DNA from: Chthoniobacterales bacterium
GTDB taxonomy: Bacteria; Verrucomicrobiota; Verrucomicrobiia; Chthoniobacterales; UBA6821
Direction: 5' to 3'
NCBI GenBank assembly: GCA_026461395.1
Contig: JAPJNA010000046.1
Location: 1-62,744 of the forward strand
DNA: 62,744 nt
The translations under genes and the position numbers were made by a program. Positions 23,991 to 58,716 of the stretch are shown piece after piece (position 1 is the stretch's first letter; every line of letters starts with the position of its first letter). Under the pieces are notes generated by a model. It worked only from the letters and a program-made list of their open reading frames with translations. It made no database searches and was not told where the DNA came from.

Positions 23991-24577
23991 TCCCGCGGAG
24001 GCGCAGAGGCGCGGAGAAGATACTATGAGCAAGGCTGATAATGGCGGGTATATTCCATTTAGAATCAATCTCCCCCTTCATTACCATGCATCCCTTCCCC
24101 CCCTCAGCGCCTCTGAGGGAAAATATCTTTTAACTCACCGGACAACTCAATGAACAATGAATGAAAATGAGATTGGCACACGGATTATTGAAGCAGCGAT
24201 CAGCGTGCATCGGGAACTTGGCCCAGGCCTCTTGGAGACTGTTTACGAAGTTGTCCTATCTCGGGAGTTAGCTAATCATGGATTGAAATCTGAGAGGCAA
24301 ATCCCCGTTCCGATCATCTACAAGGGAGTAACATTTGATGAGGGGTTCCGGGCCGACATCATCGTGGAGAAAAAAGTCCTGCTTGAGCTAAAATCTGTGG
24401 AGAGAATTATTCCAGCTCACAAGAAACAGGTTCAGACCTATTTGAAGCTGACAGGCTTGAAACTCGGATACCTACTGAATTTCGGGGAAGACGTTCTCAA
24501 GAGTGGAATCACCCGCTGCGTAAATGGACTGGAAGATTAGATTCTTCAACCCTCTGCGCCTCTGCGCCTCCGCGGGA
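23991..24577. mobile_element. Putative element: GxxExxY gene bracketed by 26-bp inverted repeats
   Basis: Left TCCCGCGGAGGCGCAGAGGCGCGGAG (23991-24016) and right CTCTGCGCCTCTGCGCCTCCGCGGGA (24552-24577) are 25/26 complementary; extra partial inverted arm at 24102-24120. Confidence 0.65.
24157..24540 (+). CDS. GxxExxY protein (PD-(D/E)XK-like nuclease fold)
   Basis: VHRELGPGLLETVY, RADIIVE...ELKS, QVQTYL, GYLLNFG. Confidence 0.93.
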   Translation: MNENEIGTRIIEAAISVHRELGPGLLETVYEVVLSRELANHGLKSERQIPVPIIYKGVTFDEGFRADIIVEKKVLLELKSVERIIPAHKKQVQTYLKLTGLKLGYLLNFGEDVLKSGITRCVNGLED

Positions 24578-25384
24578 AAACATTTATCCGGATTTCTCCT
24601 ATTTCTACTTATGGCTTTATCTTCACTCACGGCGGGGGAGTATTTCGAGGGGTTTGATAACCCGGGGAAGCCCCCTGAGCGTGATGGCATTCACTGGGGA
24701 TACACCGACGAACTGACTCCCGTGGCCGGTTGGAAATCCATCATCCCGGGCGACGGATTTGCCCACCTTTCCGTCACGAGTCATTCGCTCGGGAAGAAAT
24801 TCAAACACCTCCCCGACGGAAGTGACTTCCTTCCTTTCCAGACACTCTCGCTTGGCCCTATCGGGAGCAATCACCGTATCAGCATCCGCGCAAAGAACAT
24901 GGCCATCCCCGGTGTCGCCTGCGTCCTCTTCACCTATCGTGAAAAAACCAAAGTCGACGAGATCGACATCGAGGTCACTCCTGACGACACCCAGTCACCC
25001 GACACGGGACATAAGACCGGTACCAATGGCGGGTGGACCGATGTCCGCCTCAATACCTGGGCCAATGCCAGGGAAAGTAAGAATGGCGACGGTTCGCTTC
25101 TACCGATGCGGAGCATTCGTACTCCGATCATCGGCTCCAACGGGGGAAAGGTCTCCCACCGCGATGACAGGTTTCACATCTACACGATCGAGTGGCGCAG
25201 CGGGAGTGTCCTGTTCTTCATCGACGGGGTTGAGCAGGCCTGTATCGACGACGTGGTTCCCGACTACCCATCCATGATTATCTTCGGAATGCGTCGTATG
25301 CCCTGGTCGGGTAAGCCCGATTGGTCTGGTGAACAAACCCTGCTAGTCGATTGGATCGACATCGAATCACTAGAGAAGCATTGA
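24524..25384 (+). CDS. Glycoside hydrolase family 16-like protein (start uncertain)
   Basis: Catalytic DEIDIE motif, FHIYTIEW...FFIDG, LLVDWI; signal-peptide-like segment. Confidence 0.8.
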   Translation: MDWKIRFFNPLRLCASAGKHLSGFLLFLLMALSSLTAGEYFEGFDNPGKPPERDGIHWGYTDELTPVAGWKSIIPGDGFAHLSVTSHSLGKKFKHLPDGSDFLPFQTLSLGPIGSNHRISIRAKNMAIPGVACVLFTYREKTKVDEIDIEVTPDDTQSPDTGHKTGTNGGWTDVRLNTWANARESKNGDGSLLPMRSIRTPIIGSNGGKVSHRDDRFHIYTIEWRSGSVLFFIDGVEQACIDDVVPDYPSMIIFGMRRMPWSGKPDWSGEQTLLVDWIDIESLEKH

Positions 25385-25390
25385 TTCTCC

Positions 25391-25750
25391 TCTCCCGCAG
25401 GGGCGTGGAGAATAAAGACCGAGATCTCCCGCAGAGGCGCAGAGGCGCAGAGAGGGAAAGAGAAAAGGATTTAATATGGAACTCAGGAACTCAGGAAAAG
25501 CATGAGCCAACAATGTTGCATAAAGATCTTGAAGTAGGATCGAGCGAAATTCTCCTTACTTCCCAATAAGGGCACACGTCTTTATTTCTCTTTTTCATTT
25601 CTGAGTTCCTGAGTTCCATATTAATTCTCTGCCTCCTCTACATCTCAGAAATTGATATCCCGGCCATTGCCTCGCCTTAGCGCCTCTGCGGGAGAATCTC
25701 TGCGGGAGAATCTTTTCCCCCACCCCCTCTGCTTTTCTGCGTTGCGGGAA
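25391..25750. repeat. Nested inverted-repeat element (CGCAGAGG family outside, GGAACTCA family inside)
   Basis: Outer arms 25427-25452 and about 25676-25693; inner perfect 24-bp IR TTAATATGGAACTCAGGAACTCAG at 25471-25494 and 25601-25624. Confidence 0.8.
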
Positions 25751-25853
25751 AACATCTTCATTCCTCATTTTTCGCCCCCTCACCTACAAACATAAGCATT
25801 TCGCTTATCCCTATTCCTTCCACCTCTGATGATGCGAGAGGTAATGTTGAGTT

Positions 25854-28241
25854 ATGAACGAAATGGCACCGGCCAAACTCTCCGGATCAGTACCACCGCC
25901 GCCTCACCCACGCGAGGAGGAACGGATCGCCCGCCTACTTGGCTACGACGTTCTCGATACCGAACGCGATGAGCTTTTCGACCGTATCACCGCAATGGCT
26001 GCTGAGATCACGGGATCGCCGATCTCCCTTGTCTCCTTGGTCGACAGGAATCGGCAGTGGGTGAAGTCCAACTACGGAATCGATCTTAAGGAGAGTTCAC
26101 GCGACGACTCCTTCTGTGGTCATACGGTCATGGATGCGGATAATCTCATGATCATCCCGGATTCAATGAAGGATCCTCGCTTTGTTCATAATCCGTTTGT
26201 CGTCGGGGAACCCCACATCCGCTTCTACGCGGGTGTCCCTCTTCAGAATGGTGATGGCCTCGCAATTGGCAGTCTCTGTGTCATCGACCGGAAGCCGAGG
26301 GAATTAACACCAGATCAGATCGCCTCGTTGAAGAATCTCGCCAAGATTGCCATGGATTACCTCGATATCCATCGCTCCAATCGTGAACTCACACGTCTTC
26401 TTCTGAGGGAGAAGGAAATCTACAACCGACTTCTCAACATGTCCTCAGAGATGGCCTCCTCGTCAGTCACTCTGGAGCAGGCCCTCCAGAGTATCATGGA
26501 TCACCTTGATCCCACGATGGGATGGCTTTCATGCCGCATGACTAACTTCATGACCCATGGTTCCGATGGGATCCGAATGAATCCCCTCCTTCCCCAAGAT
26601 CCGGAAACCGCTCAGATCTGGAGGAAGATTGATTCTCAGGCCACAAAACCATCACACGATGGAGAGAACACAGCCTTCATCTCCACAGGCCTCGACGCAC
26701 CCAAGTATGCCTATCTCGTGGTGCCGATCAGGAACCGGGGTAAGCTGCAGGCCAAGATTGAAATGATCTACCCCGATCACCGCAAGATGGATCCCAGGAT
26801 CAAGGAGGTATTCGACATCATGGCGGCGAATCTCGCGATTGTGGCAGAGAGGGAGATCGCCAACATGGAGCTCCAGCACCGCGCCGTTCACGACGCGCTC
26901 ACCGGGGCTGTGAACCGGACGCTCTTCCTTGAGGAGCTTCAAAAAGCAATCTCTCAAACCGATTCGGGTAGCCCCGATTCCGCCCTCCTCTTTCTCGATC
27001 TCGATGGATTCAAGGATGTGAACGATAATTTCGGCCACCAGATTGGTGACCGCCTTCTCGTCGAGGTCACGGAACGACTTAGGCATCTCATCCGACAAGA
27101 AGACATTCTCGGACGTCTGAGTGGCGACGAGTTTGTCCTCCTGGTGAGCCATCTTGATATCCATCGGGATCTGGATGCATTGCTCAAACGGATTCAGAGA
27201 CGTATCTCCCAGCCCTACATGCTCGGTGATCTGGAGATCCGAATCACCAGCAGCATCGGTGCGGCGATTCTCGACCGGAACGACCTCACCACACCCGAGC
27301 TCCTTCGCCGTGCCGAGGAGTCCATGTACCTCGTCAAGCATGGGGAGCGGAATGGGTACTGCATCGCTACCGAGGACATCATCCGCGCATTCAAGAAGCG
27401 CCTCGATCTCGACCGCAATGTCCACGAAGCCGTCTATCAAAAACGGCTTCTGCTACATTTTCAGCCGATCGTGGAGATCGAAACCGGAAATATCTGCTCA
27501 GCGGAGGCGCTCCTCAGGGTGATGAACAAGGATGGGTCCATTCTCGCCGCTTTCGACATTATCCCCTCCATGGAGCGCATCCGCCTTATGTCTGAGGTTG
27601 ATGAATGGGTCTTCGCCGAGTCCGTCCGTATCCTCCAGCAACACAGGAAGACATGGGAGGCGATTCCTGGATTTCGCCTCTCTCTGAATGTGAGCCCTAG
27701 TATCCTCATGACCCATGGATTCGCCACCCTCTCCTTGAATCGCCTCCAGACAGCGAGTGTCTCCCCCACGATGATTCGTCTCGAGATCGTTGAGGACCAT
27801 CTGGATATGGGCAATGCCTCGCTGATGGAAAATATCACCCTCTTCCGCGATGCAGGGGTGAAGGTCGCAATCGATGACTTCGGGACAGGCTACAGCAACC
27901 TTCAGCACTTGATCTCCATCCCCTGCGACACGCTCAAGATCGACCGCTTGTTTATTCAGGGAATTCCCTCCGGAGACGAAAAGAAAATCCAACTCCTGAC
28001 CGCGATGCTTCAGTTGGGGAAAACCCTTGGCTACACTGTGATTGCCGAGGGGATCGAGCTTCAGGAACAGGCCGATCATCTCCTAGCGATCGGTTGCAAG
28101 TATGGGCAGGGATACCTCTACGGGAAGCCGATGACGATCGATCAGTTCCTCGAGCGCCTCATGGAGCAACCTCCGAACGAACTCGATCTCTTCTCCTCCT
28201 CACCAGAGCTCACACATACTCCGACGCTACGCCATCCCTAA
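25854..28241 (+). CDS. GAF-GGDEF-EAL protein
   Basis: GAF (IRFYAGVPL, GSLCVID), SGDEF, EALLR, DDFGTGYS, QGYLYGKP. Confidence 0.93.
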   Translation: MNEMAPAKLSGSVPPPPHPREEERIARLLGYDVLDTERDELFDRITAMAAEITGSPISLVSLVDRNRQWVKSNYGIDLKESSRDDSFCGHTVMDADNLMIIPDSMKDPRFVHNPFVVGEPHIRFYAGVPLQNGDGLAIGSLCVIDRKPRELTPDQIASLKNLAKIAMDYLDIHRSNRELTRLLLREKEIYNRLLNMSSEMASSSVTLEQALQSIMDHLDPTMGWLSCRMTNFMTHGSDGIRMNPLLPQDPETAQIWRKIDSQATKPSHDGENTAFISTGLDAPKYAYLVVPIRNRGKLQAKIEMIYPDHRKMDPRIKEVFDIMAANLAIVAEREIANMELQHRAVHDALTGAVNRTLFLEELQKAISQTDSGSPDSALLFLDLDGFKDVNDNFGHQIGDRLLVEVTERLRHLIRQEDILGRLSGDEFVLLVSHLDIHRDLDALLKRIQRRISQPYMLGDLEIRITSSIGAAILDRNDLTTPELLRRAEESMYLVKHGERNGYCIATEDIIRAFKKRLDLDRNVHEAVYQKRLLLHFQPIVEIETGNICSAEALLRVMNKDGSILAAFDIIPSMERIRLMSEVDEWVFAESVRILQQHRKTWEAIPGFRLSLNVSPSILMTHGFATLSLNRLQTASVSPTMIRLEIVEDHLDMGNASLMENITLFRDAGVKVAIDDFGTGYSNLQHLISIPCDTLKIDRLFIQGIPSGDEKKIQLLTAMLQLGKTLGYTVIAEGIELQEQADHLLAIGCKYGQGYLYGKPMTIDQFLERLMEQPPNELDLFSSSPELTHTPTLRHP

Positions 28242-28252
28242 GGAACTCATTC

Positions 28253-30634
28253 ATGAACAACGAGCCATTACCATCTTCCCCTGTGAATAAATCCTCTACC
28301 GCTGGAGAAATCCCCTCTTCCCCTACCCCGTATGAGGAGGAGCGTCTTTCCGTTCTCCAGAGCTTCGATCTCCTAAACAAAGAACCAATCCCCATTCTCG
28401 ATATCCTCTGCCAGTACACCGCCACTCATTGTGGTGTTCCCACGGCAGCCATCACGCTGGTAGATCGGGAAAAGATCCTGCTCAAGTCTGTCGCAGGAGT
28501 GATCAAGCCCCTAGAAATCGAGCGCACGACGAGCTTCTGTGCCAATGCCCTGATTAGTAGGGAGAAGGTCTTTGTCGTTCCCGACACATTTCTCGATCCG
28601 CGGTTTGCCTCCAATCCCCAGGTCACGCAGGAACCCTTCATTCGCTTCTATGCATCCGTGCGACTGACCACCACCACAGGTCAGGACATCGGATGTTTCT
28701 GCATCATGGATACCAAGCCGGGAACACTCTCAGAGGATCATGCAGAGTTTCTGACAGGCATGGCCAAGCAGGTCATCAAGTACCTGGAGGGTGAAAAGAC
28801 GAAAAAGGATCTTGCCCGCCTGCTCCTTCTTGAAAAAGAGGTCTATAACAAGCTCCTGCTCACCTCGGCGAACCTAGCATCCGTAGCACCCACCTTTGAC
28901 GAGGCTCTCCAGAGCATGATCCTCCATCTTGATCCAAAGCTCGGATGGCTCTCGGCCCGCATCCGCAACATGCAGACCGGCGGCACCACGGGGATCACAT
29001 ACAACCCGATCCTACCCGAGGATCCCGAGCTCCCCCTGCTCTGGAACCGCCTCGATAGTCAGTCCAGCCACCCCAGGCTGGAAGTGCCCCAGACGGACTT
29101 CATCAACTCCGCCCCGCTCCGCCCCGAGTACTCCCATCTGGTAGTTCCGGTACGGATCCGTGAGCGGCTTGTCGCCGTGATGGAGTTTCTCTATCCGGAT
29201 CATCGCAATGCGGATCCCCGGATTCGTGATGTCTTCAACCTCATCGCGGCCAATCTCTCCATCGTCGCAGAACGCGAACTCCTGAACATCGATCTGAAGT
29301 ACAAGTCAGAGCACGACCACAACTCAGGAGCGCCGAACCGCGAACTCTTCGTCCAGAGGCTGGATCGGATCCTTCAGGAGGGGAGCCTCATGAGCAATCG
29401 GAAACTGGTGCTCTTCTGCTTCGACATCAATGGTTTCCAGTCGATCAGCGACGACTTCGGCTACGAGGCCGGAGTCGAAGTACTCCGTGAGATCACCAGA
29501 AGGGCATCAAAGTTCTGCTCGGGGGATGACACGATCGGGCGACTTGTCGGCGGGGAGTTCCTTCTGCTCATTCATGAGAGAGAGCCCTACAGCTCACTCG
29601 AACTCACCATCAAGCGGGTGACATCCAACCTGAGCGGCGAGTTCCAATATGGTGATGCCAGCATTGATATCCAATTGAGCATAGGTTGTGTGGCCCTTGG
29701 TTCTGCCGAAGGATCCTCAGCCGAACTCATCCGCCGTGCCGAGGAGGCTATGCACCGCGTCAAGAACGGACAGAATCGCGGAATCTGCGTTGCCGATGAG
29801 CAGGTCACGCGGGAGTTCCTCTACAAAAGGGCGATGAACCGCACGGTCAAGGATGCGGTGAAGAACAACAGAATCTCACTCTACTATCAGCCGATCGTCG
29901 AGTTAGCCACGGGTAGGATCGTGGGGGCGGAGGCCCTGATGCGTCTGGTGAATCAGGATGGAAAACTTCTAGAGGCCAAGGATTTCATCGACTCCATGCA
30001 TAGGATGCGTCTGCTGGGCCAGATCGATGCCTGGGTCATCTCAGAGGTGCTTCTCATCTTGAAGGAAAACAAGAGCTTTCGGGATATGATTCCCGACTTC
30101 TATTTCTCCCATAATGTTACGCCTGAGGTCATCTGCCGGGAGGACTTTCACGAGCACTTCATCGCACAAGTCGAGCGATCCGGCGCACCCGCAAACGGAA
30201 TCCACATCGAGATCACCGAACAATCGATCATCCCCAACAACCAGATCCCCAACAACCAGATCCCCAACAACCAGATCCTAATCAATAACCTCAAGGTAAT
30301 GAAGGATTATGGCATCAAGGTATCTCTGGATGATTTCGGCACGGGATACAGCAATCTTCAGATCATCGCGCAATACCCGGTCGACATTATCAAGATCGAT
30401 CGCTCCTTCCTCACAGGGATTGTCTCCGGAAATACCGTGATGAACAACCTCTTGCGCTCCATCACCGACATTGCCAAGAACTTTGGCTGCAGCATGGTGG
30501 CCGAGGGAATAGAGCAACAGGCCGAGGCAGAGCACCTCCTCTCGCTGGGATGCACCCATGGACAGGGATATCTCTTCGGGAAGCCAATGCCTCTAAAGGA
30601 ACTCCACGCACTGGTCATGAAGCAATCAGGCTAA
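28253..30634 (+). CDS. GAF-degenerate GGDEF-EAL protein (likely phosphodiesterase)
   Basis: Paralog of the previous gene; VGGEF degenerate site; EALMR, DDFGTGYS; start at MNNEP. Confidence 0.9.
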   Translation: MNNEPLPSSPVNKSSTAGEIPSSPTPYEEERLSVLQSFDLLNKEPIPILDILCQYTATHCGVPTAAITLVDREKILLKSVAGVIKPLEIERTTSFCANALISREKVFVVPDTFLDPRFASNPQVTQEPFIRFYASVRLTTTTGQDIGCFCIMDTKPGTLSEDHAEFLTGMAKQVIKYLEGEKTKKDLARLLLLEKEVYNKLLLTSANLASVAPTFDEALQSMILHLDPKLGWLSARIRNMQTGGTTGITYNPILPEDPELPLLWNRLDSQSSHPRLEVPQTDFINSAPLRPEYSHLVVPVRIRERLVAVMEFLYPDHRNADPRIRDVFNLIAANLSIVAERELLNIDLKYKSEHDHNSGAPNRELFVQRLDRILQEGSLMSNRKLVLFCFDINGFQSISDDFGYEAGVEVLREITRRASKFCSGDDTIGRLVGGEFLLLIHEREPYSSLELTIKRVTSNLSGEFQYGDASIDIQLSIGCVALGSAEGSSAELIRRAEEAMHRVKNGQNRGICVADEQVTREFLYKRAMNRTVKDAVKNNRISLYYQPIVELATGRIVGAEALMRLVNQDGKLLEAKDFIDSMHRMRLLGQIDAWVISEVLLILKENKSFRDMIPDFYFSHNVTPEVICREDFHEHFIAQVERSGAPANGIHIEITEQSIIPNNQIPNNQIPNNQILINNLKVMKDYGIKVSLDDFGTGYSNLQIIAQYPVDIIKIDRSFLTGIVSGNTVMNNLLRSITDIAKNFGCSMVAEGIEQQAEAEHLLSLGCTHGQGYLFGKPMPLKELHALVMKQSG
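30230..30278 (+). repeat. In-frame 15-bp tandem repeat x3 (IPNNQ)
   Basis: ATCCCCAACAACCAG x3 followed by ATCC. Confidence 0.95.
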
Positions 30635-30706
30635 GCAGGAGTCTCAGCTATGCGACCAGAGCGGTCGGGTCATCTGTGATGAATTAGTCAAAATCATAAG
30701 GTTCTT

Positions 30707-32299
30707 ATGAAAGACATGCCCTCCAGACGGATCACGCAACCTATCAGGCAGAGGATCCTTCTCTTGAGGCGAAATATTCTCGCCCTCTGTGCGCTAACCG
30801 TGATCGCACTCTGGGGTGTGGTCCTCTACGCGCTCCACATCGAGTGGATCAATCGTCTGAAGGAGGAGAAGGTGGCACTCATACGCCATGCCAGCATCAT
30901 CTCGGGCAAGATCCACGACTCACTCGTCGATGCGAGCAAGATCATCGATGCGGTACGCACGGCTATCGAAAAGCAGATCAGCGTCGCATCTCCGGATCGA
31001 CGTCAAGCTTACGAGGTCATTCGCACGGTCATTCAGAACTTCAGCATCTACAACTCGGGCGACACATTGGGTCTGCTTCTCTACCTGGACAAGAACGGCT
31101 TTCTTACTGCCCAAAGCGGGGTCTACCCCTCCCCTGCCTATGATCTCACGGAGAGGGGCTATTTCCGTTCCCTTAGGGATGATCCCTCCAGGAAGTTTTC
31201 CATCGGCAAGATGAGGACAGCCATCACCACGGGCAAGCAGGTTTTTCACCTGTCAATGGCGCTACATAGCCCCCAGGGTGGGTTTGCGGGGGTGGTCGCA
31301 TGTCAAATCAGAGAGAAAGAACTCGCTGAGTCCATCGATCACATGCTCAAGGGGATCCACAACCAGATCCTGGTCCAGATCCCGAGTGATGGAACCGCCT
31401 TTCTTTATCCCACGACAGGTGAGATCCCCAAACAGGAGTCCCTGCTCAACGAGGAACTCCTGAGAGGCATCACCGGGAATCGGCAGGAAAGTGGACTGAT
31501 TGGTAATGAAGAAACTGGAACACTCAGAATCAGCGGAGCTAACTCGGCGTTTCGGGAAACGACTTATGTCGGATATGTAAGGGATCCCCTCTTTGGACTC
31601 CTCACCACAGCCAGAATTCCCGAATCGCAAATCATGAGAAGCTTTCTCCTCCAGAACGAATGCCTTATCGGACTGGCCATCCTGACTTCCCTGGGAATCA
31701 GCATCCTCTTTTATAGACTCTATCGAAAGGCGCTCTCGCTGGATAAATCGATCCATGAGGCTTCCTTCGACCACCTCACCCTGATCAGGAACCGGCGCTC
31801 TCTGGAGAAGGAGTTTCACCGTCTCTGGCGTGATGCGTCTCGTCGCAAGAAACCAATCAGCTTGCTCTTCATCGATATCGATCGGTTCAAGCAATTCAAC
31901 GACACGCACGGCCATGCAGCGGGTGATCGAGTGCTGATGGCAACGGCTCTCGTGATAAATCGCTCCCTAAACCGCCCCCTCGATCTCTGCTGTCGATGGG
32001 GTGGCGAGGAATTCCTAGCCCTTCTACCCGAAACAACGGCTCAGGAAGCCCTCTTCGTTGCAGAGCGGATCAGGCAACGCATCGGCATGATGAAGCTGAA
32101 GTTTCATGGAAAACCTCTTTCCCATATCACCCTGAGTATCGGTATTGCTGCAACCATGTCCCGGGTGCAGGCAGAGTTCCTGCACGAGTCGAAGTCTGGG
32201 ATTTATGAGCGGATCACCCCGGAGGATCTCATCGCCCGGGCCGACAAGGCCCTCATGCAGGCGAAGGAGTTGGGACGCGATCGGGTTATCATTGGCTGA
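30707..32299 (+). CDS. Membrane sensor (Cache-like) diguanylate cyclase
   Basis: Two TMs flanking a periplasmic domain; DIDRFKQFND, RPLD I-site, RWGGEEF. Confidence 0.92.
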   Translation: MKDMPSRRITQPIRQRILLLRRNILALCALTVIALWGVVLYALHIEWINRLKEEKVALIRHASIISGKIHDSLVDASKIIDAVRTAIEKQISVASPDRRQAYEVIRTVIQNFSIYNSGDTLGLLLYLDKNGFLTAQSGVYPSPAYDLTERGYFRSLRDDPSRKFSIGKMRTAITTGKQVFHLSMALHSPQGGFAGVVACQIREKELAESIDHMLKGIHNQILVQIPSDGTAFLYPTTGEIPKQESLLNEELLRGITGNRQESGLIGNEETGTLRISGANSAFRETTYVGYVRDPLFGLLTTARIPESQIMRSFLLQNECLIGLAILTSLGISILFYRLYRKALSLDKSIHEASFDHLTLIRNRRSLEKEFHRLWRDASRRKKPISLLFIDIDRFKQFNDTHGHAAGDRVLMATALVINRSLNRPLDLCCRWGGEEFLALLPETTAQEALFVAERIRQRIGMMKLKFHGKPLSHITLSIGIAATMSRVQAEFLHESKSGIYERITPEDLIARADKALMQAKELGRDRVIIG

Positions 32300-32544
32300 G
32301 TTGGAATTTTGTCGAGAGGCGCAGAGATAGAAGAAAACTCATAGGGATCCGTAACGGCTGCGTAGCAAAGAGATGTGTAAAGCAAAGGGATGAAAGGGAT
32401 GGGGGGGTAGATTCGCACGAGAAATCTTATCTTGTATTATATTGCCCCGAAATATAACGCTTAGAAACTAACCAGTTCGTTTTCATAGTTCGTTCAATGC
32501 TTTAGTTATTATACACCTTAGCCCCAACTGTACCCCCGCAGGTA

Positions 32545-34053: not shown

Positions 34054-34067
34054 CGGCCACAAGATTT

Positions 34068-34093
34068 TCCCGCAGAGGCGCTGAGACGTTGAG
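34068..34093. repeat. Solo degenerate CGCAGAGG-family arm
   Basis: TCCCGCAGAGGCGCTGAGACGTTGAG, about 15 nt after the stop codon. Confidence 0.7.
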
Positions 34094-36946: not shown

Positions 36947-37093
36947 TCCCGCAGAGGCGTAGAGGCGTGGAGGAGGATGACAGATGAATAAGATCTGTGT
37001 TGGTCTTGGTAAGGAGACCCCGAAGAAACCCAATCTCTACAAAATCATTTTCCCTCCTAATTCCTTTCTCCGCGCCTCTGCGCCTCTGCGGGA
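36947..37093. repeat. Gene-less CGCAGAGG-family inverted doublet
   Basis: TCCCGCAGAGGCGTAGAGGCGTGGAG (36947-36972) and CTCCGCGCCTCTGCGCCTCTGCGGGA (37068-37093). Confidence 0.85.
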
Positions 37094-37224
37094 GTAATTC
37101 CTAAGTTACCTGAATTCCACATCCATCATCCCATTTATCCCCTTCATCCCTGTAAAATCATTTCAGCTCTCCGCGATTGCTAGCCCGGCCGTTGCTTCGC
37201 AACCGTGACGGCTGCGGGATTACT

Positions 37225-47200: not shown

Positions 47201-47277
47201 AGGCGATCAGTACTGCCCAGGGTGCATCCCCAACCCCTTCTGCAACACCCAAGCACTCCAAGAAGAAGAGCCAGTAG
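44272..47277 (+). CDS. DUF2723 (TMEM260-like) polytopic membrane protein with C-terminal TPR
   Basis: DDGEM...GVMHPSGYPLW, SNHHM, PPMNW, GGTDPGRFVP, TPR-like C-terminus. Confidence 0.85.
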   Translation: MSSTDMTPSSIPESVASVEERVHPFRIFDKHERLTAIICFLIALVTYWATVMPNIGLNDDGEMATAALHFGVMHPSGYPLWTILAGLFSHIFPFGNGSWKINLFSGLCTAIAAAVFSLVSLNATRWLGVKKLPATILSVASTLTFIWVTPIWSHAVVGKGLYALHVCLMMIYLMLTYLWIRRPHWKNAFVWLVFIFCLGMSNHHMTLAMAFMPLMVILLLHAELFWEYTVYSILVASVLYLGFAYLSTDQYHPMAMKAAVRLFYTVWAGFLLLIIVRRKLTEWRQGLLLFVAVFVGLLPYAYMPFASSTNPPMNWSYCSTPEGFFYAINRSQYWGTLADQLQGTVGKLVGVAPAEKPKGPKAPDDESAMQQFAGYCKVYWSVLARNISPIPLVFALLGFALFWRLSREQRIWFYLLVIGFCLAAFLEPIQAPNGYDNSGWDMQYQYQSLCYGFFIMLASYGAAMIFASLHHGKFRPLAWTIPIISAAVAIYTLVVCYPKSNQHGHWFGWMYGHDMLANLPKDSFVFGGTDPGRFVPTYMVFGESFEKTKRDPNFDRRDLYIVTQNALADTFYNRYIRSHYTTERPTTFSWFEKLLGRDHTYPNETLILPHREDIMALFGELMNQYQKNPQAMPNPQSDPVALNSAVAEWIFLHNRDKKDGTPRHFYVEESFPMQWSYPYALPHGLCYEITHDKMGTLPPGTAERDLAWWDDYIQKLDSVPGFRNDDLALHSFAKLRNTGGNIYAFRNMRSEAERAYRQALSLWPANTETTSNLVNLLWIQGRFQDARDLVAGFLPMDPNSKVLQRLSAATEARLKASKDLPMQLAALQVNPTNRQALAPVLQSFMMLGRTGDVDATISNAIAATPKDISFLRDMINFYATQGRIPQALEVAKVLEKAQPDQWDIPFTIAKYDLITGQREAAFNNLRRAVQLGGNNALQQISHEQIFQQVAQDPAFQQALQPSAPAQAGGKALGEMSKAISTAQGASPTPSATPKHSKKKSQ

Positions 47278-47301
47278 AACTGAGAACTAAAAAGAAAGAA
47301 C

Positions 47302-47470
47302 TCGCGCAGAGGCGCAGAGGCGCAGAGTTTTTAAGCCTCGAGGCAACCGCATTCCAAGAAACGTTTTAAGAAAAACGTGCCTTTTGAATTGGGTGTTTGA
47401 ATGGCCGCCATACGCTCAACTCCGAACGCCTTTGTCTCTTTACCCTCCGCGCCTCTGCGCCTCTGCGCGA
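47302..47470. repeat. Gene-less CGCAGAGG-family inverted doublet
   Basis: TCGCGCAGAGGCGCAGAGGCGCAGAG (47302-47327) and CTCCGCGCCTCTGCGCCTCTGCGCGA (47445-47470). Confidence 0.9.
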
Positions 47471-47488
47471 TGTTTTTCCCTTGATGCA

Positions 47489-48652
47489 CTAGTAGACCAA
47501 GGGAGAGTTGCCCCCTTCTTCCATCAGCTTGGCAGCCTTAGCTTCGGCAAGACTTGCCTCCTGCTCTACGACTTTTTCCTGGAGAAAGGCTTTTAACTCA
47601 GGGATCCCCTCACCCAGTTCGGCGCAAATCGGGAGAATCGTGACACCCTTGAATTTCTTTTTGAAGAGCTTGAGATTTGCTGTGGCTTCGGGCATGTCCA
47701 TCTTGTTGGCGACGATGCACCAGGGACGTTCCGCCAGTTCGGGATTATAGAGTTCCAGCTCCTTGCGAAGAGCATTCAGATCATCCATGGGACTGCGTCC
47801 CTCGGATCCAGCCATATCCAGCACCATGAGTAGATAGGCGCAGCGCATGACATGGCGCAGGAATTGATGGCCCAAGCCCCTGTTCTCATGGGCTCCTTCG
47901 ATTAATCCGGGAATGTCGGCAACGGTTGTCTTGTGGTAATCCTCAAGGTCAACAACTCCAACCTGCGGGTTACGCGTGGTGAAGGCATAGGATCCGACCT
48001 TCGGATGGGCACGCGAGATTGCTCTCAGAAGAGTCGACTTGCCTGCATTCGGATAACCAACCAGACCGGCAAAGGCGATGGAGCGCATCTCGAGTAGGAA
48101 CCAACTTTCATCACCTTCTGTTCCTTCGGTGAAACGTCGGGGAGCCTGATTGCGTGAACTCTTGAAGTGGATGTTACCACGTCCTCCTTTTCCTCCGTGA
48201 CAGATGATGAATTCCTTGCCCACTTCGTCCAGGTCAGCGACCAGATCCTCGGGCATTGGATCGGCGAGACCTTTCTTGGCACGAGGCTGATCGGAGGGAA
48301 ATTCTTCCCCGTCAATCAACTCAGGCTCGGCAAAGGGATCGTGAGGGGCTGGTGTCGGAAACCGATAGATCAAAGTACCGACGGGAACAGGCACCACGAG
48401 ATCGGGGGCCGACTTGCCATGTCGTTGGCGATAGGAGCCCTTGCCACCCGGTTTGGCTTTCAGGATCGGCTCGAAGAAGAGATTGGCCAACTGGTCGATA
48501 TGGTTGTCGGCACGGAGAATGACATCCCCTCCGTCGCCTCCATCACCACCGTCCGGCCCGCCCTTAGGGATGAACTTTTCACGGCGGAAGCTGGCGGACC
48601 CATCGCCTCCGTCGCCCGCCTTCGCATGCACCCTTACTCGATCAATGAACAT
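47489..48652 (-). CDS. obgE: GTPase ObgE/CgtA
   Basis: MFID...SFRREKFIPKGGPDGGDGG, GYPNAGKS, DIPG, NKMD. Confidence 0.95.
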   Translation of the reverse strand: MFIDRVRVHAKAGDGGDGSASFRREKFIPKGGPDGGDGGDGGDVILRADNHIDQLANLFFEPILKAKPGGKGSYRQRHGKSAPDLVVPVPVGTLIYRFPTPAPHDPFAEPELIDGEEFPSDQPRAKKGLADPMPEDLVADLDEVGKEFIICHGGKGGRGNIHFKSSRNQAPRRFTEGTEGDESWFLLEMRSIAFAGLVGYPNAGKSTLLRAISRAHPKVGSYAFTTRNPQVGVVDLEDYHKTTVADIPGLIEGAHENRGLGHQFLRHVMRCAYLLMVLDMAGSEGRSPMDDLNALRKELELYNPELAERPWCIVANKMDMPEATANLKLFKKKFKGVTILPICAELGEGIPELKAFLQEKVVEQEASLAEAKAAKLMEEGGNSPLVY

Positions 48653-48656
48653 TCGG

Positions 48657-50512: not shown

Positions 50513-50523
50513 GAAGGGAAAGG

Positions 50524-50551
50524 GATGAAGGCTGAAGCCTGAGACCTGAAA
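50524..50551. repeat. Heptamer array (nnTGAAn family)
   Basis: GATGAAG GCTGAAG CCTGAGA CCTGAAA. Confidence 0.65.
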
Positions 50552-50578
50552 GGATTAATGGGCCTTTCGGCCTTACAA

Positions 50579-51337: not shown

Positions 51338-51424
51338 AAATTCGAAATGAAAGGTGATAAGCAAATCACTTTACCCGAGAAGGGTCCTGCAGGAAATCGC
51401 TTTTTCCCTATGCAGGCAGAAGAG

Positions 51425-53343: not shown

Positions 53344-53659
53344 GGTCGGAAGATCGGCCCGGAAGAGATATCGGTATGCCGTGCATAAGTCAAAGCGGCT
53401 GGAATGATGAATCCTGCAAGGAGACTCTTCGTATAAACTGGACGCGGAGAATGAAACTGGAGCACCGAAAACTCCGGTTGCCAGTAAAGTTACCATCGTT
53501 GCGAGAACGACTAAGAGGCAGAGGCAGAGGCAGAGGCCACCGGAGGAATGCAGATTGTCATGTAAGCAATCAATTCGCCCCCTCAGACCCTCTTTAATAT
53601 AATGCAACAAATCTTAGACTTATACTGGGTATTTCGTTGAGGTGTGCTAGTTTACGTTC

Positions 53660-55204
53660 ATGACACTTCACGTAAAAAAAGGCACCGACTGGAAATCCGT
53701 TTACGCTCAGGCTAGATCGTTAGCGCCAGAAGCCTTTGAGGCGGATCGCATCAACAACCTGATTATGGGTGAATGGGCTTCCGTTGGAACGTCCTCAACC
53801 CACGTGAATCCGGTAGACCAAATGCCGATTGAAGGTCCGCCTAAGATAGACCACCAAACCGCTCTCGATGCCGTAGCTGCGGCTGCCCGCCAGCACAAGG
53901 CCTGGGGTTTAGTGAATCTTGACGAGCGCAAGGCACGGGTGAATGCTGGATTGGTGGGACTTCGCGAGGCTCGCGACACAATTGCCCTGTTGCTGGCTTG
54001 GGAGATTGGGAAACCGTGGAAACTGGCGTGTGCCGACATCGACCGCTGTATCGACGGAGTGGATTGGTACCTGACCCAAATTGACCGTCAGCTTGAGGGT
54101 CGTTCACCACTACGTGGGCCGATTTCCAATATTGCGTCATGGAACTACCCCATGAGTGTTCTCGTTCACGCAGAATTGGTCCAAGCGCTGGCCGGAAACG
54201 CGGTCATCGCGAAAACACCCTCACAGGGAGGATTTCACTCACTCACTCTTGCCCACGCAATGATGGCCCGAGCTGGCTTGCCCGTGACTCTTGTGAGTGG
54301 CGTTGGTGCCGAGTTGAGCGACGCACTGGTCTCTTCGCCTGAGCTTGGTGCCTTTGCCTTTGTTGGCGGAAGGTCAAATGGCCGGGCCACACTCGAACGC
54401 CTTGCCGATTTCAACAAGCGTCACATCTTGGAACAAGAGGGTTTGAACGCTTGGGGGGTTTGGGATTTCAGCAAATGGGATAACCTCGCTCCCCTCATTC
54501 GCAAAGGCTTCGAGTATGCGAAACAACGATGCACCGCCTACCCTCGGTATGTCGTTCAGCGACGACTTTTCCCAGCTTTTCTCGAGATGTACATGCCTAT
54601 CGTGAAAGGGCTGAGGTTCGGCCACCCATTGGCGGTAGAGAATGACCATGACGAACTTCCAGACCTCGAGTTCGGTCCAGTGATTCACAAGACCAAGGCG
54701 GACCAGCTGCGCGCTCAGTTCAATGAGGCTATCAACACGGGAGGAATCCCTCTCTATAATGGAAACCTCGACCACGGTCGATTTATACCGGGGCAAGACA
54801 CTTCAGCCTATGTCGCGCCTGCCACAGTCCTCGAACCACCTCGGGCGTGGTCGCTGCACCACTCAGAACCGTTCGGCCCAATCGATTCGATTGTTCTGGT
54901 GGATACCGAGGCTGAATTCATTGCCGCGATGAACGTGTCAAATGGAAATCTCGTTTCTTCCGTGGCTACCGATGACATGGTTTTCGCGAAGCGCGTGCGC
55001 GAAGAAATATCGGCCTTTAAATTTGGCGTCAACGTACCCAGGTCCCGGGGAGATCGTGACGAGGTGTTCGGAGGGCTTGGTGCGTCGTGGCGCGGCGCAT
55101 TCGTCGGCGGAGACTTGCTCGTGGATGCTATCACAGATGGCGAGAGGCCCATTTACGGAAACTTCAAGGGCGCATCTCGATTCCCCGAAGGACTCGACCT
55201 CTGA
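53660..55204 (+). CDS. Aldehyde dehydrogenase family protein
   Basis: SWNYP, EQEG, QRCTA, EPFGP. Confidence 0.88.
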   Translation: MTLHVKKGTDWKSVYAQARSLAPEAFEADRINNLIMGEWASVGTSSTHVNPVDQMPIEGPPKIDHQTALDAVAAAARQHKAWGLVNLDERKARVNAGLVGLREARDTIALLLAWEIGKPWKLACADIDRCIDGVDWYLTQIDRQLEGRSPLRGPISNIASWNYPMSVLVHAELVQALAGNAVIAKTPSQGGFHSLTLAHAMMARAGLPVTLVSGVGAELSDALVSSPELGAFAFVGGRSNGRATLERLADFNKRHILEQEGLNAWGVWDFSKWDNLAPLIRKGFEYAKQRCTAYPRYVVQRRLFPAFLEMYMPIVKGLRFGHPLAVENDHDELPDLEFGPVIHKTKADQLRAQFNEAINTGGIPLYNGNLDHGRFIPGQDTSAYVAPATVLEPPRAWSLHHSEPFGPIDSIVLVDTEAEFIAAMNVSNGNLVSSVATDDMVFAKRVREEISAFKFGVNVPRSRGDRDEVFGGLGASWRGAFVGGDLLVDAITDGERPIYGNFKGASRFPEGLDL

Positions 55205-55298
55205 GGATTTCGCTAGTTTGGTTGACCGATGGGAAGGTCCTCGGTCCCAAGAGCCTACATGAGCTCATTGAGAAAAACCTCCGAACTGGTCTTGGAGA

Positions 55299-56384
55299 TC
55301 AATCCTCCTTGAGTGAAGTAGCAATCCTCCGTCTGAGTTGTCCGCAAGCGGCGTCGATATCGTGTCCTTTCTCGCGGCGAATGGTAGCGGCAATTCCGCG
55401 GTTACGCAGGATAGAAAGGAACTCCTCCTGAACTGGCTCGGAGGGGCGTTTCCAAGGTAGACCCTCGACGGTGTTGTAGGGAATGAGGTTGATCTTGGCA
55501 CGGAGACCCCTCGCCCTCTCTGCAAGGAGCTTGGCCTCGGTGGGAGCGTCGTTTACCCCCTCGATCAGGATGTACTCAAAGGTGATCATCTGTTTCTTGC
55601 GTTCGCTGTAGTAGGCGCAGGCCTCCATCAACTCGGCGACGGGGTATTTCTGATTCACCGGCATGATTTCGCTGCGGACAGAATCGCTCGCCCCGTGCAA
55701 TGAGATGGCCAGTCTTATCTGGAGGGACTGATCCGCGAGTTCTCGGATTTGGGGAACAAGACCGCTGGTGGAGACGGTCATCTTGCGTGCACCCAAGCCC
55801 ACTCCCCAGGGAGCGTTCAGGATAGAGACAGCCTTGAGCCAGTTCTTATAATTGGCCATCGGTTCCCCCATTCCCATAAAAACCAGATTATTGATGCGCT
55901 CTCCGGATATCTTCTCCGCGAGCAAAACTTGGGCGACGATCTCGTCGGTACTCAGGTGACGCTTCCATCCGTCGAGCCCGCTGGCGCAGAACTTGCATCC
56001 GTAAGCGCATCCGACCTGTGACGAAACGCAGAGGGTTCGACGGTCGGATTCCTCTCCATAGAGTGCTGGCGAGGCAGGGATCAGAACGGTTTCGATGAGC
56101 TCCCCGTCGTGGAGACGCAGAAGGAATTTGCGCGTCGTATCCTCCGAACCACTAACTGTCACTACTCCGGGAATGCGGATGGGATGTTTTTCGGCAAGTG
56201 CCGAGCGCAGAACCGCAGGGAGATTCTTCATGGCCTCCCAGGACTCGACGCGCTTCTCCCTCTCATACGCCCACTCCATGATCTGCTTGGCCCGGTAGGC
56301 AGGCTGCTCCAGCGCGGTCAGGCTCTCCTCAAGATCCTCCAGTGTGAGGGCATGAAGCGGAATGGGTACAACAGGTTCGGGCAT
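55299..56384 (-). CDS. rlmN: 23S rRNA m2A2503/tRNA methyltransferase RlmN
   Basis: SSQVGCAYGCKFC, MGMGEP, ISLH, IDAACGQL. Confidence 0.95.
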   Translation of the reverse strand: MPEPVVPIPLHALTLEDLEESLTALEQPAYRAKQIMEWAYEREKRVESWEAMKNLPAVLRSALAEKHPIRIPGVVTVSGSEDTTRKFLLRLHDGELIETVLIPASPALYGEESDRRTLCVSSQVGCAYGCKFCASGLDGWKRHLSTDEIVAQVLLAEKISGERINNLVFMGMGEPMANYKNWLKAVSILNAPWGVGLGARKMTVSTSGLVPQIRELADQSLQIRLAISLHGASDSVRSEIMPVNQKYPVAELMEACAYYSERKKQMITFEYILIEGVNDAPTEAKLLAERARGLRAKINLIPYNTVEGLPWKRPSEPVQEEFLSILRNRGIAATIRREKGHDIDAACGQLRRRIATSLKED

Positions 56385-56544
56385 GATCGGGTTTTTTCGA
56401 AAAAGGCAGAACTAAAGTGTGAGAGAAATTCATTGCCCTGCAAGCAGGGATTGCTACTATTTTCTGCTCTTCTGCCGTCACTTAAAAGGAGTCGCGGTAG
56501 GAGGGATTGGCAACAATCTCTCCGTAGAAGTTATTCAATACATC

Positions 56545-58236
56545 ATGACAACAACAATCGCTGAACTTCAGCAACTCATCGCAGCCTCGGTTAAGAACTA
56601 CCGCGAAGGCAGCATCGTCAAGGGCCACATCCTCGAGAAGCGTCCCAAGGAATTCCTCATCGACATCGGCTACAAATCCGAGGGTGTCGTTTCCGCATCG
56701 GAGTTCGAAAATCCCGAGGAGATCCAGGTCGGTGACGAGGTCGAGGTGCTCCTCGAGCGTCTCGAAAACGACCTCGGCATGGTCATCCTCTCCCGCCTGA
56801 AAGCTTCCCAGCGTCAGAACTGGTCGAAGATCGTCAAACTCTTCGAGGCAGAGGGCATCATCAAGGGCCGCGTCAAATCAGTCGTCAAGGGCGGTCTCAT
56901 CGTCAATGTCGGCGTCGAGGCTTTCCTCCCCGCCTCCCAGGTGGACATCAATCCTCCCAAGGATCTCACCCAGTTTGTCGGCAACACCTACGACTTCAAG
57001 ATCGTCAAGCTTAACGAGGACCGCAAGAACGTCGTTCTCAGCCGTCGTGAACTGATCGAGGCTGAGCGCAGTGAGCGCCGCCAGCAATTCCTCGGCACCA
57101 TGAGCGCTGGAGACAAGGTCGAGGGTACCGTCAAGAACATCACGGACTTCGGGGCTTTCCTCGATCTCGATGGCATCGACGGACTCCTCCACATCACCGA
57201 TATGTCCTGGGCCCGTCTCACTCATCCGAGCGAGGCCGTCAAGCCCGGCGACCGCCTCACGGTTGTCGTCCTGGAAATCAACAAGGACAAGGAGCGCATC
57301 TCCCTTGGCCTCAAGCAGCTTCAGTCCAATCCTTGGGATCGTCTCGAAGAGCGCTTCCCGATCGGCCAGAAGATCAAGGGCAAGGTCACCAATCTCATGC
57401 CTTACGGCGCCTTCATTCAGATCGAAGAAGGCATCGAGGGACTCATTCACGTCTCGGAGCTCTCCTGGACCAAGCGTATCACCCGTCCTTCCGACGTCCT
57501 TACCCTTGGTCAGGACATCGAGGCCGTAGTGCTCGGAGTCAACAAGGAGGATCAGAAGATCTCCCTTGGCGTCCGTCAGCTCGAGCCGAATCCTTGGGAC
57601 GAGATCGAACAGCGTTATGTCATCGGCAAGCAGGTTCGCGGCCAGGTCCGCAACATGACCGCCTACGGCGCCTTCGTGGAGCTTGAGGAAGGTATCGACG
57701 GCATGGTGCACGTCTCCGATCTCAGCTGGAACAAGAAGATCAACCACCCGAGCGAAGTCCTCAAGAAGGGCGACGAGGTGGATGCAGTCGTCATCGACAT
57801 CGACAAGGCCAACCAGCGTATCAGCCTCGGCGTTAAGCAGCTCGAGGCCGATCCCTGGAAGGAGATCGAGGGTAAGTTCAAGGTTGGCGACGTCGTCAAG
57901 GGAACCGTCTCCAAGATCGCCAATTTCGGCGCCTTCATCGAGCTCCCCGGAGCCATCGACGGACTCGTTCACATCTCTCAGATCACCGAGGATCGTGTCG
58001 AGAAGGTCAAGGATGTCCTCAAAGTCGGCCAGGAAGTCGAGGCCCGCGTTATCAAGATCGACAAGACCGAGCGTCGTCTCGGCCTCTCGATCAAAGCAAC
58101 CGGTTACAGCGAGGAAGCACTCCGCAAGGAGAGCGAGGCCCTCGAGTCCGTAAAGAGCGGCGAGGATATGGTCAGCTTCGGTGCAGCCCTCATGGCAGCC
58201 GAGGAAGAGTATCGTCCCGGTCAAGGCAGCAAGTAA
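56545..58236 (+). CDS. rpsA: 30S ribosomal protein S1
   Basis: Six S1 repeats (DIGYKSEG, FGAFLDLDGIDGLLHITDMSW and others). Confidence 0.97.
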   Translation: MTTTIAELQQLIAASVKNYREGSIVKGHILEKRPKEFLIDIGYKSEGVVSASEFENPEEIQVGDEVEVLLERLENDLGMVILSRLKASQRQNWSKIVKLFEAEGIIKGRVKSVVKGGLIVNVGVEAFLPASQVDINPPKDLTQFVGNTYDFKIVKLNEDRKNVVLSRRELIEAERSERRQQFLGTMSAGDKVEGTVKNITDFGAFLDLDGIDGLLHITDMSWARLTHPSEAVKPGDRLTVVVLEINKDKERISLGLKQLQSNPWDRLEERFPIGQKIKGKVTNLMPYGAFIQIEEGIEGLIHVSELSWTKRITRPSDVLTLGQDIEAVVLGVNKEDQKISLGVRQLEPNPWDEIEQRYVIGKQVRGQVRNMTAYGAFVELEEGIDGMVHVSDLSWNKKINHPSEVLKKGDEVDAVVIDIDKANQRISLGVKQLEADPWKEIEGKFKVGDVVKGTVSKIANFGAFIELPGAIDGLVHISQITEDRVEKVKDVLKVGQEVEARVIKIDKTERRLGLSIKATGYSEEALRKESEALESVKSGEDMVSFGAALMAAEEEYRPGQGSK

Positions 58237-58254
58237 CCCTTCGCTAACCACACC

Positions 58255-58617
58255 ATGTCACAGCCAGAAATCACTGCCTACCTCAAGACCTCCTGCGGTT
58301 GGAGCAAGGGAGTACGTGCCATCATGGACAAGTATTCCCTTCCCTACACAGAGAAGGACATCATCCAGAATCCGGCCTTCCGGTTCGAGATGGAGCAGCG
58401 CAGCGGCCAGTCGCTCTCCCCCTGCGTGGAGATCAACGGGGTCATGCTGCCCGACATCAGTGGTGAGGAAGTCGAACGCTACATGCTCGAGAAGGGGCTT
58501 GTATCAGCTAACGAGGTGAAGACCGACGTGCCGCTGAATGCCGCCTGCTCGGATGCAGAACACGCTGCGATGGCTCAGGGCCAGGGCCTGGGCCAAGGAA
58601 TCAAGATGAACCTCTGA
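58255..58617 (+). CDS. Glutaredoxin-like protein
   Basis: CGWS site, SGQSLSPCVEING. Confidence 0.8.
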   Translation: MSQPEITAYLKTSCGWSKGVRAIMDKYSLPYTEKDIIQNPAFRFEMEQRSGQSLSPCVEINGVMLPDISGEEVERYMLEKGLVSANEVKTDVPLNAACSDAEHAAMAQGQGLGQGIKMNL

Positions 58618-58637
58618 GGTTTTCAATAACTCAACAA

Positions 58638-58673
58638 GAAGGCCGCACTCGGAAGGGTGCGGCCTTTTTCTTT
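58638..58673 (+). terminator. Intrinsic terminator after rpsA-grx
   Basis: GGCCGCACTC-GGAA-GGGTGCGGCC-TTTTTCTTT. Confidence 0.85.
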
Positions 58674-58691
58674 GGCAGAAACTGAAGGTTC

Positions 58692-58716
58692 TCGCGCAGA
58701 GGCGCAGAGGCGCGGA
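58692..58716. repeat. Solo CGCAGAGG-family arm
   Basis: TCGCGCAGAGGCGCAGAGGCGCGGA. Confidence 0.85.

Follow-up and report, generated by a model that had tools for sequence, protein, structure and literature searches.

Gene-less inverted-repeat doublets in a Chthoniobacterales genome as probable relics of a small GxxExxY gene cassette

Introduction

In the part of the article by Warrier et al. (2016; PMC4990558) on which we draw, the 23S rRNA intervening sequence (IVS) carried by Coxiella burnetii is an insert of ~430 to 450 nt whose complementary ends form a stem around one small open reading frame (ORF), and it is described as selfish and horizontally acquired. Here we compare this and other described systems with an element found in a 62,744-nt stretch of DNA from a Chthoniobacterales bacterium (GenBank assembly GCA_026461395.1, contig JAPJNA010000046.1; hereafter, the window refers to this whole stretch). 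The element consists of two inverted arms made of tandem octamers, which enclose either one small gene of the GxxExxY family (i.e., a gene-bearing cassette) or a gene-less spacer (i.e., a doublet). Its size, its single small ORF between complementary ends, and the description as a selfish, horizontally acquired element recall the IVS, and the IVS ORF family itself (S23p; PF05635) is present in the source genome in five copies with an arm-gene-arm layout. However, all copies in the window lie between protein-coding ORFs and not in an rRNA helix, the ORF of the cassette encodes a protein with the GxxExxY nuclease fold, the arms are octamer arrays conserved across phyla, and the cassette is accompanied by dozens of gene-less and solo derivatives.

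A second likeness is to the GGGNATC heptamers of Xanthomonas and Nostoc (Rehm et al. 2015; PMC4692102), which are likewise short tandem noncoding words, scarce between divergent genes and located within ~50 bp of stop codons. In the sections of that report that we cite, 70 to 75 of the Xanthomonas sites are convergent plus/minus pairs, and the single or paired state is mostly kept between species. The heptamers differ in being interpreted as G-quadruplex formers, generally without association with mobile elements, and the same sections mention no small gene between the arms; the word of the cassette has no G-tract. Repetitive extragenic palindromic (REP) elements and their hairpin-forming doublets (REPINs), which are spread by REP-associated tyrosine transposases (RAYTs), share with our element one gene flanked by its own repeats, many gene-less doublets, and a lineage-specific copy number, but the source genome lacks a Y1 transposase, its arms are built of tandem repeats and not of short palindromes, and the spacers are not conserved. 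MITEs (miniature inverted-repeat transposable elements) share terminal inverted repeats, a majority of nonautonomous copies, and strain-level presence/absence. Unlike MITEs, the doublets show no target-site duplication, their interiors are unrelated, and the "parent" encodes just a 127-aa protein. The cassette is thus not a member of the IVS, MITE, or REP-RAYT systems as defined.

The gene family in question, PF13366 (PDDEXK_3/GxxExxY), is widespread, and the part of the report that treats it gives it as of unknown function with multiple transfers (PMC3424549). A literature search, which did not extend to supplements, found no paper linking such repeats to GxxExxY, PF13366, or TIGR04256 genes. 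We argue that the doublets and solo arms are probably decayed or nonautonomous, gene-less copies of a horizontally mobile mini-cassette of ~450 bp with sequence-specific ends.

Results and discussion

An intact GxxExxY cassette in the window

The source genome (G000; 2.03 Mb, 95% complete) contains the window as its contig C20. A first-pass annotation of the window had described its arm pairs as gene-less, which is wrong at the first locus. The arm at 23991 matches its formerly assigned partner, a weak arm at 24102, at only 22 of 30 positions, while it is identical at 25 of 26 positions, including the unusual first unit CGCGGAGG, to the arm at 24551-24577. The pair 23991/24577 encloses an intact ORF of 127 aa, whose profile scores are 1.5e-41 for TIGR04256 and 6.6e-41 for PF13366 (PDDEXK_3). 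This locus is the one intact copy of the mini-cassette in G000, and its features are as follows.

23991..24016, plus strand: left arm of the gene-bearing cassette (TCC and three octamers), 25/26 match with the arm at 24551-24577.
24017..24099: unique 83-nt insert from the left arm to the gene, not matched anywhere else in the genome; the first doublet as described earlier had it as its "spacer."
24100..24120, minus strand: weak degenerate arm (the earlier partner "24102"), left limit of the segment 24100-24549 that is missing in a contig of metagenome run X6 (see below).
24157..24540, plus strand: intact GxxExxY/PDDEXK_3 gene (127 aa; TIGR04256, PF13366), the cargo of the cassette, encoding a putative nuclease.
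24551..24577, minus strand: right arm of the gene-bearing cassette, with a score of 47 against the left arm and a spacer of 532 nt.

The right arm lies 10 nt past the stop codon of the gene and the left arm 140 nt upstream of the gene. At the same locus of G005, another genome of the genus, only 11 nt separate the left arm from the downstream ATG of a truncated gene copy, and the 83-nt insert is absent.

Residues E27, D67, E77, and K79 of the protein are invariant among 33 homologues, a pattern that we take to be that of the PD-(D/E)XK motif, with D, E, and K as the putative catalytic residues. A search of PDB sequences with the 127-aa protein gave no match at E <= 1. The AlphaFold (AF2) model is confident (predicted local distance difference test [pLDDT], 91.3), and the solved folds nearest to it are Cas4 SSO0001 (E = 4.7e-4; template modeling [TM] score, 0.58) and the archaeal Holliday-junction resolvase Hjc (E = 5e-3). 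These matches of a predicted structure point to a nuclease core and to nothing more specific.

Contigs of four lake or freshwater metagenome DNA runs were aligned to the window, and they contain the locus in two forms. In a 13.5-kb contig of run X6, position 24099 is joined to 24550, which leaves arm, 83-nt spacer, and arm with the gene gone; the deletion is bounded by the weak arm and the strong arm, which repeat each other in direct orientation. The X8 contigs retain the gene at the 24157-24540 locus. Together with the arm and truncated copy of G005, these contigs show that natural populations contain a single locus both with and without the gene. A doublet elsewhere in G000 (C4:22975-23222) has a spacer that encodes residues 1 to 49 and 110 to 126 of the same gene with the middle deleted (78.6 bits). 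Among the intact GxxExxY and PF05635 four-helix-bundle genes of G000, seven of eight lie between arms, and the words of the arms differ among cassettes.

The same arms flank relatives of the gene in many phyla

Close relatives of the gene from many phyla are flanked by the same arms, whose conservation far exceeds that of the gene's silent sites. A scan of one genome per prokaryote species gave 323 relatives, and the loci of the best 80 of these (protein identity, 69 to 99%) were analyzed. The record titles of these loci point to at least ten phyla, with taxa that include Verrucomicrobiota, Kiritimatiellia, Lentisphaerales, Desulfobacteraceae, Terriglobia, Nitrospirota, Thermotogae, Bipolaricaulota, Planctomycetota, Spirochaetota, and Bacillota, and the flanks represent 57 unrelated contexts. 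Records of Prosthecobacter are among those with a cassette. In a blind inverted-repeat search across the gene, 56 of the 78 testable loci reached a score of 28 or more (shuffled sequences, at most 26), and almost all of these repeats were the CGCAGAGG arm. When the arm was searched for directly, both arms were found at 58 of the 80 loci, one at 18, and none at 4. Arms are 90.6% identical to their consensus, compared with 68% for the adjacent gene nucleotides and 39% for third codon positions; the gene values refer to a single sequence and not to a consensus, a comparison somewhat flattering to the arms, yet the difference is large.

Within the octamers, the triplets CGC and GAG are near-invariant, whereas variation is seen at the base that separates them and at the final base; the word of the window's clade is CGCNGAGR, with a period of 8. 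The upstream arm ends 1 or 9 to 12 nt before the ATG, and the GAGG of its last full word therefore occupies the position of a ribosome-binding site; the downstream arm begins 4 to 7 nt past the stop codon. Cassettes with the gene in other genomes likewise follow stop codons, since in 36 of 63 loci an upstream ORF terminates at most 30 nt from the left arm, and they tend to be co-oriented with their upstream neighbors in 47/70 cases and with their downstream neighbors in 50/69.

The second GxxExxY gene of G000, located on contig C62, has arms of a different word. Relatives of this gene from 300 other genomes of the phylum (44 to 59% identity) have arms in 20 of 30 loci, and the words of this clade are [GA]C[AG]CAAAGR-like, with a period of 9 to 10. 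Across the two clades examined, the arm word is specific to the protein clade.

Doublets and solo arms in the window and the source genome

As read from the sequence, an arm consists of TC[C/G] and three tandem octamers (roughly TCSCGCAGAGGCGCRGAGGCGCAGAG). The outer end is fixed as TC[C/G]CGC, and the number of units per arm ranges from 2 to 4. A single arm is a series of direct octamers and not a palindrome; pairing requires a second arm 32 to 223 nt away. The word CGCAGAGG occurs 20 times in the window (expected, 3.80 +/- 2.08; a count of 20 was reached in 0 of 100 shuffles). Sixteen of these copies lie inside the arms listed in the first-pass annotation, and the other four (5714, 13071, 13747, and 56027) are isolated octamers, about the number expected by chance. 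The doublets that it listed (23991/24102, 25427/25676, 36947/37068, and 47302/47445) and its solo arms (25391, 32311, 34068, and 58692) are all present, and its placement of the arms near stop codons is borne out, each starting 6 to 77 nt after one. Among the five arm pairs of the window, one encloses the GxxExxY gene and four are gene-less. The features beyond the cassette are as follows.

25391..25408, plus strand: degenerate outer arm, with a likely degenerate partner at ~25712-25740.
25427..25693: gene-less doublet with arms 25427-25453 and 25676-25693 and a 223-nt spacer.
25474..25621: (GGAACTCA)n doublet nested inside the spacer of the preceding doublet, with 79 matches at other loci.
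32305..32330, plus strand: degenerate solo arm behind a GGDEF gene.
34068..34093, plus strand: solo arm, 17 nt past a stop codon, with no partner within 700 nt.
36947..37093: gene-less doublet with arms 36947-36972 and 37068-37093 and a unique spacer.
47302..47470: gene-less doublet with arms 47302-47327 and 47445-47470, between convergent genes.
58692..58717, plus strand: solo arm at which the G003 alignment ends.

A search of G000 with a 15-mer (at most 2 mismatches) gave 113 arm matches (plus strand, 56; minus strand, 57). Neighboring arms at most 3 kb apart are convergent (plus and then minus) in 33 cases, compared with 5, 4, and 3 cases of the other three arrangements, and 31 of the 33 convergent pairs, i.e., the 31 doublets, have spacers of 32 to 223 nt. 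Arm orientation and spacing are therefore far from random, a point on which the first-pass annotation had staked its reading. The remaining 51 arms include 10 without the canonical end (which may be chance matches), 3 with long-range partners, and 5 too near a contig end to be judged; for 33 there is no partner above background within 700 nt, 3 of these having only a weak candidate.

The stems predicted for the 31 doublets are very stable (-35 to -127 kcal/mol), and the loops between the arms are 32 to 223 nt; for comparison, an intrinsic terminator is a short GC-rich hairpin that has a small loop and precedes a T-run. The first-pass annotation called the spacers unrelated, and this is mostly so: 25 of the 31 have no match elsewhere in G000, and 3 share one spacer family. 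A description of the spacers as mosaics of other repeats holds for just 6. Repeat elements were also found nested within each other. Rfam, searched at gathering thresholds, gave no match in the window between 23000 and 59500. The number of repeat units varies in the population, since the X8 contigs have one additional CGCAGAGG unit at 36949; they also have an 11-nt insertion at 25395 in the degenerate arm.

Position relative to genes was examined with longest-ORF calls. Doublets whose flanking genes were typed lie between convergent genes in 16 of 29 cases, compared with 16% of all intergenic gaps (P = 1.9e-6), and between divergent genes in 2 of 29. Among the 58 gene ends flanking them, 3' ends outnumber 5' ends by 43 to 15 (P = 3e-4), and genome-wide a flanking stop codon lies within 75 nt for 24 of the 31 doublets.

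Presence/absence among close relatives

Close relatives differ in whether a given site holds an element. The block 25387-25712 is wholly absent in G003 (another genome of the genus): the degenerate partner at ~25712-25740 of the outer arm at 25391 is found there too, everything between is missing, and the orthologous site accordingly lacks the doublet 25427..25693. The spacer of this doublet differs in G005, and in the X6 contig 94 letters replace 244; the segment 25498-25597, inside the nested doublet, is skipped in contigs of other metagenome runs. Where the first locus of the window has the GxxExxY cassette, G003 carries a (GGAACTCA)n doublet. An X6 contig joins 36946 to 37109, so that the 36.9-kb doublet is absent there; in the window this doublet is flanked by a 9-nt direct repeat (TCCTAAGTT), and it is the sole doublet with a repeat of that length. 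A larger replacement affects the 530-aa GGDEF (diguanylate cyclase-like) gene together with its degenerate arm (30638-32386), in place of which contigs of the lake runs X6 and X8 have 61 other letters; this is a strain-level gene gain or loss ending at an arm.

Synteny with relatives was also seen to break exactly at arms (window positions 36947 and 58710). In G005, the 36.9-kb doublet and its right flank are on a different contig from its left flank (the contigs involved are C12 and C23), and the alignment of G003 (C26) terminates at the 58.7-kb solo arm.

At the 47.3-kb locus, the entire intergenic region between the convergent genes (47262-47490), with the doublet and its unique spacer, is 98 to 100% identical between G000 and G003:C26 (locus L002), while the coding flanks are ~80 to 84% identical. 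This identity could reflect a recent transfer of the element alone or strong constraint. The spacer is present only in G000 and G003 among the 23 genomes of the genus, and the idea that it is a conserved small RNA of the genus was rejected on this ground. The site holds tRNA-Pro(CGG) in G001 and G013 (loci L005 and L010), a methyltransferase-like ORF in G005, and nothing in G002; at the G000 locus, ARAGORN detected no tRNA. Inspection by eye shows this tRNA-like sequence at the site in G004, G006, G009, and G010 as well.

At the level of the genus, a 16-mer of the arm was found in 19 of 22 other genomes, with 0 to 47 matches per genome. It was found in neither of two genomes of the sister genus and as single matches in 2 of 16 other genomes of the order. 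An intact cognate gene is present in 10 of the 23 genomes of the genus, and the median number of arm matches is 18 in those with the intact gene versus 3 in those without it (one-sided P = 0.007; 0.013 excluding G000).

Tests of base-pair covariation and of a selected stem

The first-pass annotation had proposed that the arms are under selection for a long-range stem, citing arm ends that covary within a copy and mismatches that keep G-U pairing on the plus strand. The covariation of arm ends exists among the pairs of the window and disappears genome-wide: permutation tests were run on anchored arm pairs (3 of 32 pairs were dropped for lack of an anchor), and the end position (C or G) agrees between the two arms in 17 of 29 (Fisher P = 0.45). 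True partners share 21.8 of 26 identities, compared with 21.6 +/- 0.19 for permuted partners (P = 0.13). The preference for plus-strand G-U pairs is not general either, since the 122 arm mismatches comprise 55 transversions and, among those that allow G-U pairing, 32 for the plus strand and 35 for the minus strand, and sorting the mismatches of G000 by the direction of the neighboring gene gave no support for a strand bias.

The 58 gene-bearing cassettes behave similarly, with 54 sense wobbles, 53 antisense wobbles, and 112 transversions. Their end position is asymmetric (upstream arm, G in 40 and C in 23; downstream arm, C in 64, G in 6, and T in 1), and the commonest end pair, G upstream with C downstream (32/58), is a stem mismatch at position 3. 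Partners in gene-bearing cassettes are slightly closer to each other than permuted ones (22.2 versus 21.7), in a sample in which many loci are closely related. Orthologous arms of G000 and G003 diverge about as fast as their flanks, and the changes are not compensated. The doublet on C12 is 92% identical (flanks, 94% and 78%), the doublet on C54 is 72% identical (flanks, 83% and 82%), and four solo arms resemble their flanks in this respect. Arms that lack the gene thus decay as neutral DNA does.

Weighing the explanations

The mobilization that the first-pass annotation had offered as one outcome of its stem stands in altered form: as we read them, the arms bound a gene cassette that spreads horizontally, and the doublets are forms of it without the gene, while the evidence for a selected stem fails. 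Several results weigh against reading the doublets as relics of such a cassette. The link between gene and arm number rests on related, non-independent genomes, and it has exceptions (G005, with 30 arm matches and a truncated gene; G016, with the gene and no match). No target-site duplication was found in general: the best direct repeat averages 4.77 nt for doublets (control, 4.38 +/- 0.16 nt) and 3.72 nt for gene-bearing cassettes (control, 3.57 nt). In a six-frame hmmsearch, the C4 spacer described above was the only one of 31 with a recognizable remnant of the gene; the other 30 scored at most 2.2 bits, within the range of shuffled controls (up to 4.2), and the candidate explanation that the spacers are decayed gene remnants was rejected. 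With one such spacer and 25 unique ones, simple decay of whole cassettes fails for most doublets. Four-helix-bundle genes, which are not nucleases, occur in the same architecture, and hence the gene could be cargo rather than the mobilizing enzyme. About 30 canonical arms are truly solo. The comparison across phyla carries two reservations of its own, namely the flattering consensus noted above and the phylum labels, which are titles of metagenome-assembled genome records, some possibly mis-binned.

A selected RNA structure is the alternative that we take most seriously, although we consider it unlikely. The doublets would then be stems in 3' untranslated regions with the variable spacer looped out, and such stems would serve as RNase III cleavage sites, as barriers to exonucleases, or as terminators of transcription. 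Their predicted energies and their preference for 3' ends and convergent genes (43/58 and 16/29) fit this role, the article on the Coxiella 23S IVS provides a precedent in an ORF-enclosing stem excised by RNase III (PMC4990558, in the part cited), and the 47.3-kb doublet is nearly identical between two species in spite of its diverged flanks. Selection on pairing, however, predicts what the permutation tests did not find, i.e., pair-specific complementarity (P = 0.13) and covariation of arm ends (P = 0.45). Neither the doublets (32 versus 35 wobbles; 55/122 transversions) nor the cassettes (54/53/112) favor G-U pairs on one strand, the orthologous arms of C12 and C54 change uncompensated at about the flank rate, and some 30 solo arms are unable to form a stem at all. 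It is the sequence, and not merely the pairing, that is conserved across phyla, to the point that position 3 is mismatched in 32 of 58 cassettes; the conserved 47.3-kb spacer is limited to 2 of 23 genomes; and Rfam gave no match.

The other alternatives keep a DNA element or a simple repeat and change its origin. We consider it very unlikely that the doublets are ordinary MITEs, i.e., derivatives that arose by deletion from a DDE-type insertion sequence and are mobilized in trans by its transposase: terminal inverted repeats of ~26 to 30 nt, 0 to 47 matches across the species of one genus, and the 9-nt direct repeat around one strain-variable element all agree with this origin, but a general target duplication is lacking, interiors are unrelated in 25 of 31 copies, and the 127-aa GxxExxY gene is the only one found between such ends (at least one arm at 76/80 loci), though no systematic search for DDE transposases was made. 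A REP/REPIN-type system spread by a RAYT (Y1 transposase) would account for intergenic inverted doublets, lineage-specific copy number, and one "master" gene per genome; it is hardly credible here, because Y1_Tnp (PF01797) is absent from the 95%-complete G000 in a search whose control was positive in 6 of 14 reference genomes, the arm is a tandem repeat and not a palindrome, and the gene has a PD-(D/E)XK fold. We give equally little credence to simple-sequence repeats that arose by slippage, or to G-quadruplexes, unrelated to any mobile unit. The variable unit number (2 to 4, with the extra unit of X8 at 36949) and the Xanthomonas heptamers, which have the same layout and are read as G-quadruplex formers in the cited part of PMC4692102, speak for such repeats, but the arms have a fixed outer end (TC[C/G]CGC) and a fixed pair orientation (33 versus 5, 4, and 3), CGCAGAGG contains no GGG, and the same arms accompany one gene clade across phyla, a finding that contradicts this alternative.

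A candidate mobile mini-cassette and its implications

The relic reading, which we prefer, suggests the following scheme. The mini-cassette has the order arm, GxxExxY (PD-(D/E)XK nuclease-fold) gene, and inverted arm, and the arms would be sequence-specific sites read by the cassette's own protein, in the manner of transposon ends. If the arms are read in this way, arm and gene would travel and covary together. The two arms may also form a stem in the transcript, which would surround the gene and mask its GAGG ribosome-binding site. Doublets and solo arms would accumulate just behind stop codons, where insertions are tolerated.

A bolder proposal, which we put forward tentatively and regard as possible rather than probable, is that GxxExxY proteins are the mobilizing nucleases of very small autonomous DNA elements (~450 bp) of an undescribed kind. 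Such an element would consist of a 127-aa protein gene between two arrays of the protein's own recognition word; it would insert behind stop codons without target duplication, cross phyla freely, and leave behind MITE-like doublets and solo ends. If the protein does mobilize the cassette, this would explain both a large family of unknown function and the long-noted excess of intergenic tandem repeats of 7 to 9 nt in bacteria. The relic reading itself, if it holds, would connect the GxxExxY family, the arrays of short words next to stop codons (reported with no cause given in the cited part of PMC4692102), and the ORF-carrying intervening sequences of rRNA. For annotation, the hairpins should be masked as repeat relics and not taken for regulators of neighboring genes, and they also signal rearrangement and assembly breakpoints.

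Other repeat families and assembly breaks

G000 contains 200 tandem arrays with a period of 7 to 9 and at least 3 units, 154 of which lie outside long ORFs. The largest family consists of CGCAGAGG-type words (45 arrays), followed by AAACCTG (16) and AACTCAGG (7), and 23 of the 25 commonest 8-mers of the genome contain GATC. A second word family, (GGAACTCA)n, forms inverted doublets of its own that are nested within CGCAGAGG doublets; its sites include 25474-25621 in the window, C16:18211-18336 and C18:3643-4313 in G000, and ~108400-108500 in G003:C2. The C18 site is a nest of three word families, including the GCACAAAA word of the GxxExxY gene on C62. A dispersed module (TTCCTAAGTT.CCTGAATTCCACATCCATCATCCC...) lies just outside right arms (window, 37096-37160; G005:C12:45230-45400), and in G005 it occurs twice in tandem together with arms. 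Eight arms of G000 lie within 800 nt of a contig end, which indicates that these repeats also break assemblies.

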